Shown: in pieces, positions 3,495 to 63,850 of the stretch
How the letters are laid out: each line of letters opens with the position of its first letter
Numbering within the stretch: position 1 is the first letter of the stretch
DNA from: Patescibacteria group bacterium
GTDB taxonomy: Bacteria; Patescibacteriota; Minisyncoccia; Phycocordibacterales; Phycocordibacteraceae
Assembly: GCA_013815345.1 (NCBI GenBank)
Contig: JACDGK010000006.1
Span: forward strand, 1-63,851
Length of the DNA: 63,851 nucleotides
Reading direction: 5' to 3'
The notes under the pieces: model-generated
Told to the model about the DNA's origin: nothing
What the model saw: only the letters and a program-made list of their open reading frames with translations
Databases searched by the model: none
Position numbers and translations under genes: made by a program

Positions 3495-3592
3495 TGATCG
3501 ATTGTATCAGAAAGCCTCTCTGCGGTAGACATTGCTCACTTATGAGTCATCGAATTAGTGAGCAAGAAATGCCCTTGTGGTACGCTTTAGAA

Positions 3593-23272: not shown

Positions 23273-23343
23273 TGCGGGATAGGAGAATCGAACTCCTGCT
23301 ATCAGTTTGGAAAACTGATGTTCTACCATTAAACTAACCCCGC
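23273..23343 (-). tRNA. tRNA-Gly(TCC)
   Basis: GCGGGGT...ATCAG-TT-TCC-AA-CTGAT...GGAGTTCGATTCTCC-TATCCCGCA cloverleaf; no encoded CCA. Confidence 0.95.
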
Positions 23344-25445: not shown

Positions 25446-25516
25446 TCGGGGTGCGGAGAATCGAACTCCGTCTAACTGGTCCCAAACCAGTCGTACTACC
25501 GGTATACGACACCCCG
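25446..25516 (-). tRNA. tRNA-Pro(TGG)
   Basis: CGGGGTG...ACTGG-TT-TGG-GA-CCAGT...CGGAGTTCGATTCTCCG-CACCCCGA. Confidence 0.93.
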
Positions 25517-27384: not shown

Positions 27385-27455
27385 TGCGGATAGGGAGAAT
27401 CGGACTCCCGCCTCGTCCTTGGCAAGGACGCGTTCTACCACTAAACCATATCCGC
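27385..27455 (-). tRNA. tRNA-Gly(GCC)
   Basis: GCGGATA...GTCCT-TGCCA-AGGAC anticodon arm (GCC centred)...GGGAG-TCCGATT-CTCCC-TATCCGCA. Confidence 0.93.
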
Positions 27456-27525: not shown

Positions 27526-27597
27526 TGCCCCCGCCAGGACTCGAACCTGGAACGGCTGATCCGAAGTCAGCAATGATATCCATTTCACCACAGGGGC
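27526..27597 (-). tRNA. tRNA-Arg(TCG)
   Basis: GCCCCTG...GCTGA-CT-TCG-GA-TCAGC...CCAGGTTCGAGTCCTGG-CGGGGGCA. Confidence 0.93.
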
Positions 27598-27656: not shown

Positions 27657-29141
27657 TTGATGAACTTCCCTATTCCTGATCAAGTACGCTCAGTTGCCGA
27701 GGGATTGCGAAATGGAGGCTTTGAGGCATACCTTGTAGGTGGCTGTGTTCGTGACCTTTTTCTCAAGCGGATACCTAAAGACTGGGACATCACAACTAAC
27801 GCGAAGCCCGAAGATATCCAACGCATTTTCCCGGACTCCTATTACACCAATGATTTTGGAACCGTTGGAGTACTCCGCGAGACCGAAAATGAAAGTCTTA
27901 AAGTCATCGAAGTTACTCCGTATCGCACAGAATCAGGCTATTCTGATAAGCGTCGACCGGATGTTGTTCAGTTTGGAGACAGCCTTGAAGAAGATTTGGC
28001 ACGACGCGATTTCACTATAAACGCCATTGCTCTCGATGAATCTAAAGGACATATTGTTGATCCTCATCAAGGACAAAAGGACATTGAGCGGCATGTGCTC
28101 CGAACGGTGGGCGATCCGGAACAGCGCTTTGAAGAAGATGGCTTGCGGCTCATGCGTGCGGTGCGGCTAGTAGCTGAGCTTAATTTTGCACTTGATTCCG
28201 AAACTGCGGCCGCAATCCAAAAGAAAACAACTAATTTAAAGCATATTTCAAAAGAACGAATTAGGGATGAGTTTATTCGTATCCTTAATTCGGATCAGCC
28301 TATGATGGCTCTCGTCCTAGCTCAGCAACTAGGAATCCTGGAATATATAGCGCCCGCTTTAATTCGAGGAATTGGTATCGAACAAAATCAAGCCCATAGT
28401 TATGATGTTTTTGGGCATCTCATGAGAGCGGTCCAACACGCAGCAGATAAGGGGTGGGATTTTGATACACGCTTAGCTGCCCTTTTTCACGATATTTCAA
28501 AGCCAGAAACACGTAAATGGTCAAAGGAGAAGGAAGATTGGTCGTTTCACGGGCATGAAGTTGTAGGTTCACGTGCAACCAGAAAAGCCTTAGAAGAGCT
28601 CAAGTTTCCACGTGAAATTATAGAAAAGGTCACTAAATTAGTAAGGTGGCATATGTTTTTTTCAGACCCTGATCAAATCACCCTCTCGGCGGTACGGCGA
28701 ATGATCCGTAATGTAGGGGAAGAAAATATATGGGATTTATTGAATCTTCGTATATGTGATCGGATCGGAACAGGAAGACCTAAAGAGCAACCTTTCCGTT
28801 TTCGTAAGTATAAGGCGATGGTCGAGGAAGCCCTTAGAGATCCTATATCGGTCACCATGCTTAAAACTGATGGCAATAGAATTATGGAAAAGTTCTCAGT
28901 GGAAGCAGGGCCGCGGCTGGGATGGATTCTAAATGCTTTACTTGAAGACATTCTCGATGATGCCAAGCTAAACACTGAGGCTTATTTAGATTCCCGAACT
29001 GAAGTACTCGCACATCTTTCTGATGATGAACTTAAAAAGTTTGGGGATTCGGGTAGAAAAAAAAGAGAGGAAAAGGAAGAAGATGAACTTAAAAAAATAT
29101 TAGAGAGAAATCACGTATCACAAAATATAAAAGGCCCATGA
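27657..29141 (+). CDS. cca: Class II CCA-adding tRNA nucleotidyltransferase with HD domain
   Basis: VGGCVRD, KDWDITT, EDLARRDFTINA, FEEDGLRLMRAVR, ALFHDISK. Confidence 0.9.
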   Translation: MMNFPIPDQVRSVAEGLRNGGFEAYLVGGCVRDLFLKRIPKDWDITTNAKPEDIQRIFPDSYYTNDFGTVGVLRETENESLKVIEVTPYRTESGYSDKRRPDVVQFGDSLEEDLARRDFTINAIALDESKGHIVDPHQGQKDIERHVLRTVGDPEQRFEEDGLRLMRAVRLVAELNFALDSETAAAIQKKTTNLKHISKERIRDEFIRILNSDQPMMALVLAQQLGILEYIAPALIRGIGIEQNQAHSYDVFGHLMRAVQHAADKGWDFDTRLAALFHDISKPETRKWSKEKEDWSFHGHEVVGSRATRKALEELKFPREIIEKVTKLVRWHMFFSDPDQITLSAVRRMIRNVGEENIWDLLNLRICDRIGTGRPKEQPFRFRKYKAMVEEALRDPISVTMLKTDGNRIMEKFSVEAGPRLGWILNALLEDILDDAKLNTEAYLDSRTEVLAHLSDDELKKFGDSGRKKREEKEEDELKKILERNHVSQNIKGP

Positions 29142-29190
29142 TTGTATTTCCGTCCACTACGAACTGACGGGAACAAAATCATGGGCCTTT
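29130..29190. repeat. Long stem-loop overlapping the cca stop codon (terminator-like)
   Basis: Perfect 14-bp AAAGGCCCATGATT / AATCATGGGCCTTT outer stem plus 8-bp inner stem TTTCCGTC / GACGGGAA. Confidence 0.75.
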
Positions 29191-60033: not shown

Positions 60034-60133
60034 TGTGGATAGGATTTTGTACTTTTCCACATGAGAAATCAATGACATTGTTTCCTTATGAGTCATCGAG
60101 TTAGGAAACAAGAAACACCTTTATGGTGGAAAA
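60034..60133. promoter_or_regulatory. Additional DnaA-box cluster
   Basis: TGTGGATAG (60034), TTTTCCACA (60053), GGTGGAAAA (60125), followed by an AT-rich tract. Confidence 0.5.
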
Positions 60134-60155: not shown

Positions 60156-60638
60156 CTATGAAAAGCGTTTGGTGAGTGCAGCGATGCCTAGTGCGATAGC
60201 ATCGAGCTCATCATCGAGGCGCTTTTTAGGCGGTAAGGAGATAAGCTGAGGAATCATTCGAGCCACGGCAGTTTTATCCGCTGCACCATAGCCGGTAACG
60301 GCAAGTTTTACTTCTTGCGGCGAGCATTCAACCACGCGGCAGCCGGCTTTGCCGGCTGCCGCGAGTATTGCGCCGCGCGCCTCAGCAACGCCGATAGCTG
60401 TTTTTACATTCGTACTAAAAAAGAGCGTCTCGAGCGCGAATACATCTGGTGCGTACTGCGCAATTGCTTGCTCAGCAGCACGTTGCACCGCGTAGAGTCG
60501 TGCTTCCCGGGTCCCTTTTGGGGGAAGGATACAGTCACTCCACACATAGGTCGGCTTGCTGGCATCCCCCTCGACGACCGCAATACCCATGCGATCAAAT
60601 CCAGGATCGATTGCAAGTACTCGTTTTAAATTGTTCAT
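60156..60638 (-). CDS. ruvC: Holliday junction resolvase RuvC
   Basis: LAIDPG, ALETLFF, EARG, KLAVTGYGAADK, DDELDAIA. Confidence 0.96.
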   Translation of the reverse strand: MNNLKRVLAIDPGFDRMGIAVVEGDASKPTYVWSDCILPPKGTREARLYAVQRAAEQAIAQYAPDVFALETLFFSTNVKTAIGVAEARGAILAAAGKAGCRVVECSPQEVKLAVTGYGAADKTAVARMIPQLISLPPKKRLDDELDAIALGIAALTKRFS

Positions 60639-60668: not shown

Positions 60669-61226
60669 TTATTCGCGTGTGCTCTCATAGCCTCGTGCAT
60701 TTGAAAATACCTGCTGCACGTCTTCATGATCATCTAAAAGTCCTAACATTTCACCAACGTTATTCTCCTCATCCCCAATAACCTCAACGAGTGGTTCATT
60801 TGGCAGGAAAGATCCATCCGGAGTTTTCGTAAAAGCCCAAAGCGCGCTACCTTGAGCAGCAAGTTCGTAGCCATTTTTCGTAAGCAAATGTTTTACCTCC
60901 TGTGTCGTACGGTTTTTGTTATCGGTGAGCGCGTCAACGACGAAAGCCGCGCCACCAGGTCCATAAAATTCATATACCACCTGCTCAAGATCATGTGCAT
61001 CTTTAGAATTACCCTTTGCTATCGCGCGCTCGATCGTGTCTTTCGGCATGTTTACTTCTTTCGCACGTGCAATAGCCGCGGAAAGTCCCGGTGACGAAAG
61101 ATTACCACCTGATTTTTTCGCCTCCAGGGTTATGAGTCTTCCAAAGCGAGAAAAGGTGCGGCTCTTTGCTGCGTCCGAGGCGCCCTTTTGTCTTTTTATT
61201 TGTGACCATTTGCTGTGACCAGACAT
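60669..61226 (-). CDS. yebC: YebC/PmpR family protein (short form)
   Basis: MSGHSKWSQIKRQK, NMPKDTIERAI, YGPGG, TDNKNRT, DDHEDVQQVFSN. Confidence 0.95.
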   Translation of the reverse strand: MSGHSKWSQIKRQKGASDAAKSRTFSRFGRLITLEAKKSGGNLSSPGLSAAIARAKEVNMPKDTIERAIAKGNSKDAHDLEQVVYEFYGPGGAAFVVDALTDNKNRTTQEVKHLLTKNGYELAAQGSALWAFTKTPDGSFLPNEPLVEVIGDEENNVGEMLGLLDDHEDVQQVFSNARGYESTRE

Positions 61227-61238
61227 AGTAATTAAAAT

Positions 61239-62231
61239 TTAAGATTTCAGATAGCTTCGACCGGTGTCGGTAAGAATACGCCCACGTGAGGACCGTTCAA
61301 TAAAACCCAAACGCAAAAGATACGGCTCGTACACGTTTTCAATGGTGTCAGGATCTTCGTGGAGTGCGGAGGCAAGTGCTCGCACGCCGGCAGGACCGCC
61401 TTTGAAGCCATCTTGCAGTGTTTGGAGATAGCGTCGATCGTCTTTCGTGAGACCAAGCGGGTCAATACCGAAAAGCAAACAGGCAGCATCACATACTTCA
61501 GGTGTTAATTCTTTCTCATGCACTTCAGCATAGTCGCGGACACGTTTCAAAAGTGCATTCGCAACCCGCGGAGTCGCGCGACTTCTCGACGCGATTTTTT
61601 CCACAACCGTACTTGGCGCATCAAGCCCCAGGACTTTTGCTGATCGTTTAATGATTGCCCGAAGATCTTCATCAGAATAAAAATCGAGCTGGTACACCCC
61701 ACCGCCGAAACGCGAACGAAGCGGGCCCGAAAGCTGTGCGACGCGAGTCGTCGCACCCACGAGCATGAATGCAGGAAGCGTAAGCTCGACCGTTCGCGCC
61801 GAAGGACCTTTTCCGAGCACAATATCTAACACTCCCGACTCAAGGGCAGGGTAGAGGAGTTCCTCGATCTTTCGGGAAAGTTGGTGTATCTCGTCTATGA
61901 AAAGTATTGAGCCAGGTTCCAGGTTCGTAAGAATGGCGGCGAGGTCGCCAGGGCGTTCAATCGCAACACCAGAGGTGTTGCGAAGAGGCGCCTCAAGTGT
62001 TGAGGCTACAAGGTGTGCGAGTGTCGTTTTCCCAACCCCCGGAGGGCCATAGAAAAGCACGTGTTCAGGCATGTCATTTCTTTTTTTTGCTGCTTCCAGC
62101 AACACTTGCACGTTATTTTTTACATGACTTTGCCCGACATATTCGTCCCAAAGGGAAGGTCGCAAGGTCGCATCCAGTTGTCGATCTGGCGTTCGCAGCA
62201 CTACCGTGACGATATCAGGGGTACTTGACAT
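61239..62231 (-). CDS. ruvB: Holliday junction branch-migration helicase RuvB
   Basis: LRP...YVGQ, YGPPGVGKTTLA, FIDEIH, GATTR, LRSRFG, EPYLL...RGR. Confidence 0.96.
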   Translation of the reverse strand: MSSTPDIVTVVLRTPDRQLDATLRPSLWDEYVGQSHVKNNVQVLLEAAKKRNDMPEHVLFYGPPGVGKTTLAHLVASTLEAPLRNTSGVAIERPGDLAAILTNLEPGSILFIDEIHQLSRKIEELLYPALESGVLDIVLGKGPSARTVELTLPAFMLVGATTRVAQLSGPLRSRFGGGVYQLDFYSDEDLRAIIKRSAKVLGLDAPSTVVEKIASRSRATPRVANALLKRVRDYAEVHEKELTPEVCDAACLLFGIDPLGLTKDDRRYLQTLQDGFKGGPAGVRALASALHEDPDTIENVYEPYLLRLGFIERSSRGRILTDTGRSYLKS

Positions 62232-62301
62232 ATAATCAGACTATGCTAGCATTATATCATACTCAGGGTCGGCCTGATATATGCACCTTCTCGCGAGAGA
62301 G

Positions 62302-62327
62302 GATTTTTTGTGCCTGCACAAAAAATC
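62302..62327. repeat. Perfect 12-bp inverted repeat with 2-nt spacer
   Basis: GATTTTTTGTGC-ct-GCACAAAAAATC. Confidence 0.8.
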
Positions 62328-62349
62328 AATCACAGGGCTTTTGTATTTT

Positions 62350-62515
62350 AAATCCTGCTCACTACCCTCTAGGCAAAGGCTTGACGGCTTCAGGGCGTTT
62401 CCCCAAGGACTTTCTGGTACCCACTTTACTGTGGGAGCGCTGGGAGCATCCTCAGGCGATTCGTTCGCTTTTCTTCACGGAAAAGGGTGCCTGGAGGGTA
62501 CTGTGCGGGATTTTT
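62350..62515 (+). ncRNA. Candidate 6S RNA (SsrS)-like structured RNA
   Basis: Closing stem AAATCCTGC/GCGGGATTT + TACCCTCTAGGCA/TGCCTGGAGGGTA, central bubble with 3' hairpin, 16-position upper stem, apical hairpin. Six G-U pairs on the + strand; ends in a T run. Confidence 0.6.
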
Positions 62516-62522
62516 CTATTTA

Positions 62523-63146
62523 TTACGGAAGTTTCGTGGCTCCAGGACAAAAACTGAATCCAAGATTGCCGCTGTCGTACGATTCATTTACGAAATACGT
62601 TGTGCCAACATAATAATTCAGACTACAAAGCTCCTCTGCAGGTATACCCAGTCGACTAATAAGAAATTGTTCAGCCTCGTGACGAGCATTTCCAATAGGT
62701 TCCTTCAAGAGAGCGATCGTAAAGGCCTGAGCCTTACTATCAAAGCCAATGTTAAAATTGGTACTCGTCGCTGCCGTACATTTAATATTAGGTAAGCAAT
62801 ATCCAAGGCTTCCCGCAAGAAGGTACGATCCGGTATTTTCAACATCCGAAATCGTCTCTCCATTATGTATGAAATCTTTAACCTGTATCGTGTTTCCAGA
62901 TTGTGTACCAACTGGCATCTGCGCGGTTGAAGGGCCAGGAGGAATATTTCCTGTTCCCGTACCAGAAGAAGGGAAGGTAATTTGATTCTGTGAACCAGGT
63001 GGTTGAGGAGCTGGAGTAATATATTTATATACGAGAAAACCGGCGAGTAATATCCCAATAAGAATCAAAAGGATCGCAAGGATTAAAAATTTCCTGTTCA
63101 TTTTAATGATTTTACCACTTATTATCCGCCACCACTTGCAACGCAA
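62523..63146 (-). CDS. Membrane-anchored hypothetical protein with Cys pairs
   Basis: N-terminal TM, Pro/Gly linker, GYCLP..KC, LCSLNYYV and FSFCPGATKLP. Confidence 0.75.
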   Translation of the reverse strand: MRCKWWRIISGKIIKMNRKFLILAILLILIGILLAGFLVYKYITPAPQPPGSQNQITFPSSGTGTGNIPPGPSTAQMPVGTQSGNTIQVKDFIHNGETISDVENTGSYLLAGSLGYCLPNIKCTAATSTNFNIGFDSKAQAFTIALLKEPIGNARHEAEQFLISRLGIPAEELCSLNYYVGTTYFVNESYDSGNLGFSFCPGATKLP

Positions 63147-63850
63147 GCTTTTTGGGTGGAGCTGCGAGGGTCAGCTGTCCAAGCCCCGTAGCTTCCATGG
63201 TTTGCTTGGATAAGACAAGCTGCTGCAGACGCACTACAGGTTAGATTGTTTGCAGCTGCTTGGCACTGCGCGGCAAGTGCTTGAGACTGAGCATCCGGCT
63301 TTGGATGCCCTCCACTGTAAGCGGCGGAGCAATTAAGATTTCCGCAAGCAGGAATATTTAAACTGTGGCAAGAATCTTTTGCACCTAAAAGTATTTGCCA
63401 CGGGCCAGAAGCGCTTGTAGATTGTCCCCCAGGAGTCGTAGCCCCTGTAGTCTTTTGACCACATGCACTTTCCGGTCGAGCAAGACAAGCCAGTATCGTG
63501 GCTTCTGAACTCGAAATATTATAACCTCCTGCAGCAGCGCTGCTTTGAACAGTACTTGCGGAACACGCCCCTGTTCCGTTTTGTGGCAATGTCCCCCCCG
63601 CCCCAGGCACACTCGGCCCAGTCCCTCCAGTCCCTCCACTAGTGTTAGCAGCGTCCGTGAGGCCAGGAAGAGGAGGAGGGTTGGCTTTAGCTATGAAGCA
63701 CTTGTCTCCACTATCAGCCAGTATAGAGTTCCAGGGTCCAAAGGAGCTTCCACTGTTATAGATAACCTTCATAAGGGAATCTATGAGAAGCCAGGCCACG
63801 AGTACTATCACAAGCCCTATAACCGCATTGAAGAGCCGTGCACGGGCTTT
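63122..63850 (-). CDS. Pilin (VirB2-like) fused to a lytic transglycosylase/lysozyme-like domain (5' end beyond the right edge)
   Basis: In frame to the edge: KARARLFNAVIGLVIVLVAWLLID pilin helix; later LARPESACG, ASGPWQI and ASAAACL...GSYGAW. Confidence 0.65.
   Translation of the reverse strand, partial: KARARLFNAVIGLVIVLVAWLLIDSLMKVIYNSGSSFGPWNSILADSGDKCFIAKANPPPLPGLTDAANTSGGTGGTGPSVPGAGGTLPQNGTGACSASTVQSSAAAGGYNISSSEATILACLARPESACGQKTTGATTPGGQSTSASGPWQILLGAKDSCHSLNIPACGNLNCSAAYSGGHPKPDAQSQALAAQCQAAANNLTCSASAAACLIQANHGSYGAWTADPRSSTQKACVASGGG

Follow-up and report, generated by a model that had tools for sequence, protein, structure and literature searches.

The closest described counterpart of the RNA reported here is 6S RNA, a rod of 160-200 nucleotides (nt) in which a relatively unstructured central bubble separates the closing stem from the apical stem; the 3' strand of this bubble carries a -10-like element, the apical arm carries a -35-like element, and the 5' strand serves as template for product RNA (PMC8876501, PMC8414754). 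In 6S RNA of the Firmicutes type the 3' bubble contains a preformed hairpin of 5-7 bp opposite an open 5' bubble (PMC8876501, PMC8414754). Ms1 RNA from Actinobacteria, a lineage-restricted and 6S-like RNA that is missed by the Rfam 6S models and was recognised largely by way of synteny, binds the core enzyme of RNA polymerase rather than acting by base pairing (PMC9130861). Here, we describe an RNA of approximately 165 nt that is encoded on the plus strand of contig JACDGK010000006.1 from a Patescibacteria group bacterium (63,851 nt; this whole stretch is referred to as the window), where it lies divergently upstream of ruvB. This RNA is 6S-like in outline, yet the feature by which the 6S mechanism is defined sets it apart from 6S RNA.

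A large part of the diversity of bacteria falls within the Patescibacteria, or Candidate Phyla Radiation (CPR), whose genomes measure 0.5-1 Mb and nearly all of which have yet to be cultivated. To our knowledge, apart from rRNA, tRNA and a divergent RNase P RNA, hardly anything has been reported on the non-coding RNAs of this group.

A structured RNA gene upstream of ruvB

Positions 62350-62517 of the window encode a genuine plus-strand structured RNA gene that is non-coding, single-copy and not described before, and the family to which it belongs is apparently undescribed as well. The plus strand of this region folds with a minimum free energy (MFE) of -77.2 kcal/mol (z = -6.5), and none of 200 shuffled sequences is equally stable. 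The minus strand folds at -59.8 kcal/mol (z = -3.6). Using RuvB as a handle, we collected 80 orthologous loci, one genome per species, with RuvB identities of 56-86%; the organisms among them suggest that the window belongs to the Paceibacteria/Kaiserbacteria group. A search by nhmmer with the 168-nt sequence alone found homologues in 51 loci (E < 1e-6). One of these is truncated, the others are full-length, and they always lie immediately upstream of ruvB on the opposite strand.

Forty-nine of these sequences were aligned by MAFFT. RNAalifold applied to this alignment reproduces the single-sequence fold, with changes on both sides that preserve pairing in 32 of the 54 pairs. The cells assigned to pairs are paired in 93% of cases versus 37-49% when the partners are slid by 1-3 columns, and none of 500 shuffles reaches the observed covariation. 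A covariance model built from the same alignment located the RNA in 67 loci, some with a RuvB of only 56-65% identity; a filters-off search with this model contributed six more loci, and inspection by eye contributed two further divergent copies. In the model-fitted alignment of all 67 sequences, 47 of the 54 pairs are compensatory and 94% of the cells are paired, compared with approximately 46% in the slid controls.

The same alignment identifies the transcribed strand. Read from the plus strand it contains 599 G.U or U.G cells versus 57 A.C or C.A cells, several pairs are invariant G.U on this strand, and the covariance model scores approximately 150 bits on the forward strand versus approximately 30 bits on the reverse strand. 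The excess of G.U over A.C shows that the RNA is read from the plus strand and is not the 5' leader of ruvB; these counts together with the fold energies rule out either form of minus-strand RNA. An earlier model-made reading of the sequence without database searches (the sequence-only reading) had assigned the RNA to this strand and placed it upstream of ruvB, and was correct on both points. It had also staked the proposal on conservation and covariation in related genomes, and both were found.

The element occurs once within the 63.8-kb window. Its homologues measure 132-184 nt; over 170 loci have been found, each the sole copy on its contig and each at the same syntenic site. The family is kept in nearly every sampled genome of the Paceibacteria, a group of ultra-small bacteria within the Patescibacteria/CPR, and so far it has been found only there. 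One examined ruvB locus (L077:2500-3010) is alone in having neither promoter nor RNA; in this case ruvB borders directly on a terminator and a convergent gene. In another locus (L019:2725-2939) a 10-N assembly gap and some 50 additional bases interrupt the apical arm; this is probably an artefact of scaffolding and not a genuine insertion. Several records are titled Bacillota, Flavobacteriaceae or Saccharibacteria (L002, L080 and others), and their RuvB is 56-84% identical to that of Paceibacteria; most of them contain the RNA. The taxonomic labels of these metagenome-assembled genomes look unreliable.

Architecture of the RNA and comparison with 6S RNA

The overall shape of the RNA is a rod formed by a 22-bp closing stem (P1) and an apical arm of approximately 25 bp (P3-P6; Table 1). 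P1 is interrupted at two single nucleotides, and 22 of its 22 pairs vary on both sides among the 67 homologues. Each pair of the apical hairpin P6 and all five pairs of the 3' hairpin P7 covary as well. These three helices correspond to the closing stem, the apical hairpin CCCAC/GTGGG and the 3' hairpin CTTTTC/GAAAAG of the sequence-only reading, which therefore hold. In distal P1, P6 and P7 the sequence drifts freely and pairing is maintained; the apical loop is likewise variable (UUUACU, CUCGUA, UUCG and others). Sixteen positions are at least 95% identical in the 67 sequences, and these comprise the junction AA, AGG/CCU in P4, GG/CUG in P5 and a few positions in P1.

The 5' side of the junction folds differently from what had been expected. 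The stretch AAGGCTTGACG had previously been read as an 11-nt unpaired bubble strand. It instead supplies the 5' half and the loop of P2, a small hairpin that is kept as a hairpin in divergent homologues. In the 49 closest homologues the P2 region, GGCUUGACGGCU, is nearly invariant, so that covariation of P2 cannot be judged among these close relatives. More distant relatives replace the helix by AGACC/GGUCU, GGUCC/GGACC, AAACC-UUCG-GGUUU, CCCC/GGGG, or AGCC/GGUU alternating with AGCG/CGUU. The summed MFE of 16 such variants is -66.2 kcal/mol versus -22.9 +/- 5.3 kcal/mol for shuffled sequences, and none of 2000 shuffles is as stable. P2 is weak in the window (-2.9 kcal/mol) and stable in some lineages (-6 to -11.7 kcal/mol), among them those with a UUCG cap. 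In two members (L067 and L068) the 5' junction segment has shrunk to 5-7 nt.

The 3' junction segment measures 20-29 nt and contains P7 in 58 of the 67 members. In the remaining nine (L034, L025, L054, L015, L008, L044, L051, L052 and L055) it is reduced to 1-6 nt; hence, this segment is not a required part of the family. With the side hairpins formed, the median number of unpaired linker nucleotides is 7. At family level the centre of the RNA is thus a closed three- or four-way junction with up to two small side hairpins, P2 and P7, that are individually dispensable.

An upper stem pairing 62387-62402 with 62442-62457 had also been proposed. The sequence of the window does allow 14 of its 16 pairs, as claimed, but its covariation is no better than that of shuffled controls. 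This register was set aside, and P3, P4 and P5 represent the supported one. The proposed stem is mutually exclusive with P2-P5. It can pair in 83% of the cells among close relatives because the participating sequences are invariant there, and it may represent an alternative conformer.

Table 1. Positions of the RNA gene, its structural parts and neighbouring genes in the window
Feature	Position	Strand	Remarks
-35 hexamer TTGACA	62225..62230	+	
extended -10 TGC-TAGCAT	62244..62252	+	16-nt spacer; predicted start near 62259
variable leader	62259..62349	+	hairpin 62263-67/62273-77; terminator-like hairpin 62287-62302; T-run 62304-62309; A/T-flanked palindrome 62304-62325; U-rich tract before P1
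structured RNA core, ~165 nt	62350..62517	+	covariance model 158.6 bits
P1 closing stem, 5' strand	62351..62374	+	pairs with 62489-62512; junction-proximal 8 bp conserved in sequence (CUCUARGC/GCYURGAG)
5' junction segment	62375..62392	+	invariant AA 62376-77, then P2
P2 small hairpin	62378-81/62386-89	+	loop UGAC; additional pair A62377-U62390
apical arm P3-P6	62393..62466	+	three conserved internal loops; covariation-supported
P3	62393-97/62462-66	+	
P4	62401-08/62450-58	+	AGG/CCU (62406-08/62450-52) invariant family-wide
P5	62411-18/62439-46	+	tandem U.G/G.U helix CUGG/CUGG (62415-18/62439-42) invariant family-wide
P6 apical hairpin	62421-24/62431-34	+	
3' junction segment	62467..62488	+	contains P7
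P7	62469-73/62480-84	+	sequence free
P1 closing stem, 3' strand	62489..62512	+	
T-run TTTTTCT at 3' end of P1	62511..62517	+	the transcript probably ends here in this genome
candidate ruvB promoter, extended -10 TGA-TATAAT	62251..62259	-	predicted; hexamer overlaps the -10 of the RNA by 2 bp
ruvB	61239..62231	-	RuvB_N (1.9e-64), RuvB_C, AAA_lid_4; divergent from the RNA
yebC	60669-61226	-	YebC; after ruvB
ruvC	60156-60638	-	RuvC; after yebC

We compared this architecture with the description of 6S RNA in PMC8876501 and PMC8414754. The likeness to the Firmicutes type, as found in B. subtilis 6S-1 and in lactic acid bacteria, extends to the size, to the looped rod with P1 and the P3-P6 arm both interrupted and covariation-supported, to a 5' bulge opposite a 3' hairpin, and to a stand-alone gene with a sigma70-type promoter and lineage-wide conservation. 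The window taken alone resembles this layout, as its 18-nt 5' segment with a pairing energy of -2.9 kcal/mol faces a 22-nt 3' segment with a hairpin. At family level the comparison fails at the centre. The 5' segment forms P2 in most lineages instead of an open template strand, the 3' strand is lost in the nine members listed above, and the junction is closed. The present RNA also differs from 6S RNA by its synteny with ruvB. We further looked for a conserved alternative helix of the kind that arises in 6S RNA once product RNA has unwound the top of the closing stem. In MFE folds with the putative template masked, the freed strand paired with the 3' side of the arm in 28 cases, with P2 in 13, with the 5' side of the arm in 7, with the 3' strand of P1 in 4, with P7 in 2 and with nothing in 13, so that no consistent helix emerged from this crude test.

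Searches for known families point in the same direction. Rfam 15 (4227 families) at gathering thresholds returned no match to the RNA in the window, 6S included. The 6S-family models, RF00013 among them, gave no match at E <= 10 in window positions 62200-62650 or in the divergent member L058, and none at E <= 5 across the whole window. The only permissive matches near the RNA, to drz-agam-1, WLE3, ceN105 and JA01 (E = 2.5-9.4), are noise. This missing match carries less weight as evidence, given that the Rfam thresholds also miss CPR RNase P RNAs (PMC8172020). In the literature consulted we found no report that links 6S or a comparable RNA with CPR, Patescibacteria, Parcubacteria or Saccharibacteria, and none of a synteny between 6S RNA and ruvB; the "6S RNA" in PMC8321541 is only a name for the RNA of the signal recognition particle (SRP); it is irrelevant here.

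The sequence-only reading had left the choice between a divergent 6S RNA and a new RNA of similar fold, and had suggested the Rfam search, including RF00013, which even at permissive thresholds returned nothing relevant. Membership in the 6S family is not supported, in view of this missing match, the helix in the 5' strand, the dispensable 3' strand and the approximately 7 nt that remain unpaired. The other option, a new RNA of similar fold, is well supported by the plus-strand assignment, the covariation, the separate promoter, the rod shape and the absence of any Rfam match. Ms1 shares with the present RNA the restriction to one lineage, the 6S-like character, the escape from Rfam 6S models and the recognition through synteny. 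With about 300 nt, Ms1 is longer, it is actinobacterial, and we detected no sequence or model similarity between the two.

Transcription unit and overlap with ruvB

The RNA gene appears to be a transcription unit of its own. In 67 of 67 loci the RNA is preceded by a promoter in matching orientation, consisting of a perfect TTGACA, a spacer of 16-18 nt and an extended -10 (TGnTAnnnT). This combination of a perfect -35 and an extended -10 is the sole such site on either strand of the 63.8-kb window. Judged by its sequence, this consensus sigma70-type promoter would be strong. The leader between the predicted start and P1 varies from 7 to 161 nt across the 67 loci and spans only 7-10 nt in 11 of them. 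The longer leaders usually hold a hairpin and then a U-tract, leaders in the homologues tend to end with these two and the sequence 'UUUUCUUU' next to P1, and P1 is bordered by a U-rich tract at nearly every locus. The leader may function in attenuation, processing or 5' protection. As to the 3' end, the sequence-only reading had let the RNA terminate in TTTTT. This T-run (62511-62515) is present in the window copy, where we found no separate terminator downstream of P1, but it is not general, since most homologues have a separate bidirectional terminator of A-run, GC-hairpin and T-run located 5-25 nt past P1.

The promoter of the RNA is physically interlocked with ruvB. The last two bases of the -35 hexamer together with T62231 (CAT) constitute the ruvB start codon on the other strand, and in 24 of 25 checkable loci the CAT within TTGACAT is the ATG of ruvB. 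A candidate ruvB promoter (TGATATAAT) is predicted on the minus strand, and in 41 of the 67 loci the -10 hexamers of the two promoters overlap by 2 bp. The ruvB 5' untranslated region predicted from this promoter measures approximately 13 nt and contains no obvious Shine-Dalgarno sequence. Among the ruvB-anchored loci, about 75 of 76 carry the RNA divergently upstream. In a reverse test against the bias of anchoring on ruvB, we scanned metagenome contigs with a pattern derived from the RNA and counted those hits whose upstream flank reached 450 nt or more. ruvB was found divergently upstream in 105 of 108 hits; the remaining three have no model match at the pattern site and are chance matches, leaving 105 of 105 genuine loci. 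Several of the matching contigs stem from assemblies with 'Hain-H41', 'Hain-H43' or 'Hain-H51' in their names. The near-absolute synteny can be accounted for by the physical overlap between regulatory and coding signals, and it need not imply a functional link to recombination. A -35 element inside the start codon of a neighbour represents a clear case of regulatory overlap that fixes gene order over long evolutionary distances.

Orphan structured RNAs described previously also combine intergenic covariation, occurrence in a single lineage and strong structure with no assigned function (PMC2864571, PMC1950547). The present RNA differs from these by a fuller gene model (promoter in 67/67 loci plus terminator), by near-universal occurrence in a class with reduced genomes and by the promoter interlocked with the start codon of its neighbour.

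On its far side the RNA is bordered by the stop codon of a convergent open reading frame (ORF) of 207 codons (62523-63146, minus strand), for which we found no homologue among 200 related loci and no Pfam match; this flank is therefore lineage-specific. The neighbour at this side varies across the family, with an ATPase of the T2SSE type in 21 of 54 loci by motif count, one example of which was confirmed by Pfam. The 207-aa ORF overlaps with another on the same strand (63122-63811, 229 aa). Both have N-terminal hydrophobic segments and no Pfam match, and the 229-aa product is rich in Cys, Gly and Ser.

Candidate functions and remaining features of the window

We lean towards the view that this RNA is the founding member of a new family of trans-acting, protein-binding structured RNAs in Paceibacteria. 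Sequence invariance is confined to two duplex patches approximately two helical turns apart, one comprising the top of P1 with the junction AA, the other AGG/CCU with CUGG/CUGG. Two invariant duplex patches amid freely changing pairs point to a specific protein or ribonucleoprotein partner that reads a coaxial rod. Going by this conservation pattern, the RNA would act in trans as a stable, abundant, protein-binding molecule; the partner would read the two patches across the coaxially stacked junction, and P2 and P7 would be dispensable decorations. The leading named candidate for the partner is the RNA polymerase holoenzyme, which might be sequestered in the manner of 6S RNA, in a non-canonical form given the closed junction. 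This assignment is speculative and, in our estimate, holds only a minor share of the probability; partners unrelated to transcription are in aggregate at least as likely, which is speculative too. That the RNA is not a 6S RNA at all, and is instead the first of a functionally new, CPR-specific class of housekeeping RNA in which the two invariant duplex patches of a coaxial closed-junction rod recruit or titrate a core protein other than RNA polymerase, has in our view slightly less than an even chance. In an extreme version, to which we give a very slim chance, the four-way RNA junction would be co-regulated with ruvB through the interlocked promoters and would titrate RuvA, RuvB or RuvC by imitating a Holliday junction. 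A precedent in shape is adenovirus VA RNA I, which measures about 160 nt, places a central multi-helix junction between its terminal and apical stems, and acts as a protein decoy by way of its duplex rod. This is an analogy of shape only, as VA RNA I is viral and eukaryotic, made by polymerase III and not homologous, and it shows that a closed-junction rod can be a decoy without an open bubble.

Several points weigh against the favoured assignment to a new protein-binding family. Protein binding is suggested by the conservation pattern, and the start, the 3' end and the abundance of the transcript are likewise predictions from sequence motifs. Between promoter and RNA, the window and most homologues have a terminator-like hairpin and a U-tract; taken at face value, this hairpin would lower read-through into the RNA. 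The search for a canonical 6S RNA covered the ruvB neighbourhoods and one 64-kb window, and such an RNA may lie elsewhere in these genomes. Furthermore, the family could be a true 6S RNA with side hairpins that melt on the polymerase, in which case the term "new family" overstates the distance.

Of the rival explanations, this last possibility is the one to which we give the most weight. A functional 6S-type RNA would bind the sigmaA/sigma70 holoenzyme as an open-promoter mimic, P2 would melt into the template, and product RNAs would run into the 5' strand of P1 and thereby release the polymerase. The length of 132-184 nt and the rod with an arm interrupted by internal loops fit this idea, as do the strong predicted promoter, the single copy and the class-wide occurrence in reduced genomes. 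The conserved patches fall at the top of P1 and the junction, the expected site of templating for product RNA, and at mid-arm, where a -35-like contact could be made; moreover, no canonical 6S RNA was found in the 64-kb window. Bacteria with reduced genomes generally keep 6S RNA. In the window and close relatives, the weak 5' segment of 16-18 nt (-2.9 kcal/mol) faces a 3' hairpin of 5-7 bp as in 6S-1 from B. subtilis and in lactic acid bacteria (PMC8876501, PMC8414754), and CPR RNase P RNAs are sub-threshold in Rfam, too (PMC8172020). On the other hand, two divergent members gave no 6S-family match at E <= 10, nor did the window at E <= 5, and most lineages have a selected helix at the 5' segment, while the true 6S consensus has an open 5' bubble (PMC8876501). 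The 3' segment, the site of the -10-like element in 6S RNA, measures 1-6 nt in nine of the 67 members, and in two members the 5' segment measures 5-7 nt; approximately 7 nt are unpaired with the hairpins formed, and masking revealed no consistent refolding partner. Because of the gross architecture, the patch positions, the retention of 6S RNA in reduced genomes and the escape of CPR RNAs from Rfam, we keep a 6S-like function as a possible, if rather unlikely, explanation. A main action in cis on ruvB, either by promoter occlusion (transcriptional interference) or by antisense pairing with read-through ruvB transcripts, with the fold being secondary, is improbable. The overlap of the -10 elements (41/67 loci) and of the -35 with the ATG (24/25 loci) and the adjacency of RNA and ruvB, near-absolute in both directions, would be accounted for by it, but interference needs a promoter only and leaves the 54-pair fold with 47 compensatory pairs and the promoter-distant invariant core unexplained. 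The leader of 7-161 nt also lets the position of the RNA relative to ruvB vary, and bidirectional terminators beyond the RNA in most loci speak against read-through antisense transcripts. Promoter competition with ruvB is plausible as a side effect.

It is very improbable that the RNA belongs to another known class (SRP RNA, RNase P RNA, transfer-messenger RNA, a riboswitch or leader, or a detached rRNA fragment) and is merely too divergent to be recognised. A long rod is also typical of SRP RNA, whose domain IV is a GNRA-capped helix 8 with symmetric and asymmetric loops. We set SRP RNA aside on account of the variable apical loop without a conserved GNRA loop, the lack of conservation of domain IV motifs and the absence of an SRP match at permissive thresholds. 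For RNase P RNA, 165 nt is too short, and there was no match. A riboswitch or leader was rejected on the grounds that a terminator and/or a convergent gene follows the RNA in the window and in homologues, with no same-strand gene downstream; a P1 of 22 bp is also unlike that of riboswitches. Transfer-messenger RNA and an rRNA fragment were set aside on structure and the Rfam results. CPR housekeeping RNAs can be highly divergent (PMC8172020), yet no Rfam family of any kind matched at permissive thresholds. Finally, the locus could be an element acting at the level of DNA, for instance a miniature inverted-repeat transposable element (MITE) whose terminal inverted repeats would imitate a closing stem, or part of a small protein-coding gene, which we regard as exceedingly improbable. 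Inverted termini of 26 nt around approximately 110 nt recall a MITE, but the single copy, always at the same ruvB site, and the strand-asymmetric G.U pairing rule out such a repeat. The two overlapping ORFs of 110 aa (62225-62557 and 62281-62613), one of which would have overturned the sequence-only reading had it proved to be a conserved protein, are not conserved. Neither has a Pfam match, the homologue lengths are spread evenly over the three phases (22/22/23 modulo 3), 133 of 140 indel runs have lengths not divisible by three, and in-frame stops occur in 48 of 49 and 34 of 49 sequences. From these observations we conclude that neither ORF is a gene.

An RNA of approximately 165 nt that is near-universal in the sampled Paceibacteria and has the best consensus promoter in 64 kb very likely serves a basic role. 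If it is of the 6S type, no global regulator of RNA polymerase would have been described in CPR before it, and the rule of an open bubble would relax to include a closed junction. If it is not, it would represent a new class of housekeeping RNA in minimal cells. The 67-sequence alignment, the covariance model, the search pattern and the gene model are usable now.

The window contains a few further features. A 54-nt direct repeat occurs at 3528-3581 and at 60074-60127, 56 kb apart, with the second copy just past ruvC. Both copies fold into 9-bp hairpins, between which four pairs have changed in a compensatory way (CUCAC/GUGAG versus UUUCC/GGAAA); the 17-nt loop, UUAUGAGUCAUCGARUU, is common to both, and this loop motif is absent from all 200 related loci. 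An inverted repeat at 29130-29190, with 25-nt arms of 88% complementarity and an 11-nt gap, is probably a terminator; it produced a sub-threshold Rfam match to TEG147 (25.9 bits versus a cut-off of 56). A 4.3-kb stretch of the minus strand holds four tRNA genes (23273-23343, 25446-25516, 27385-27455 and 27526-27597).

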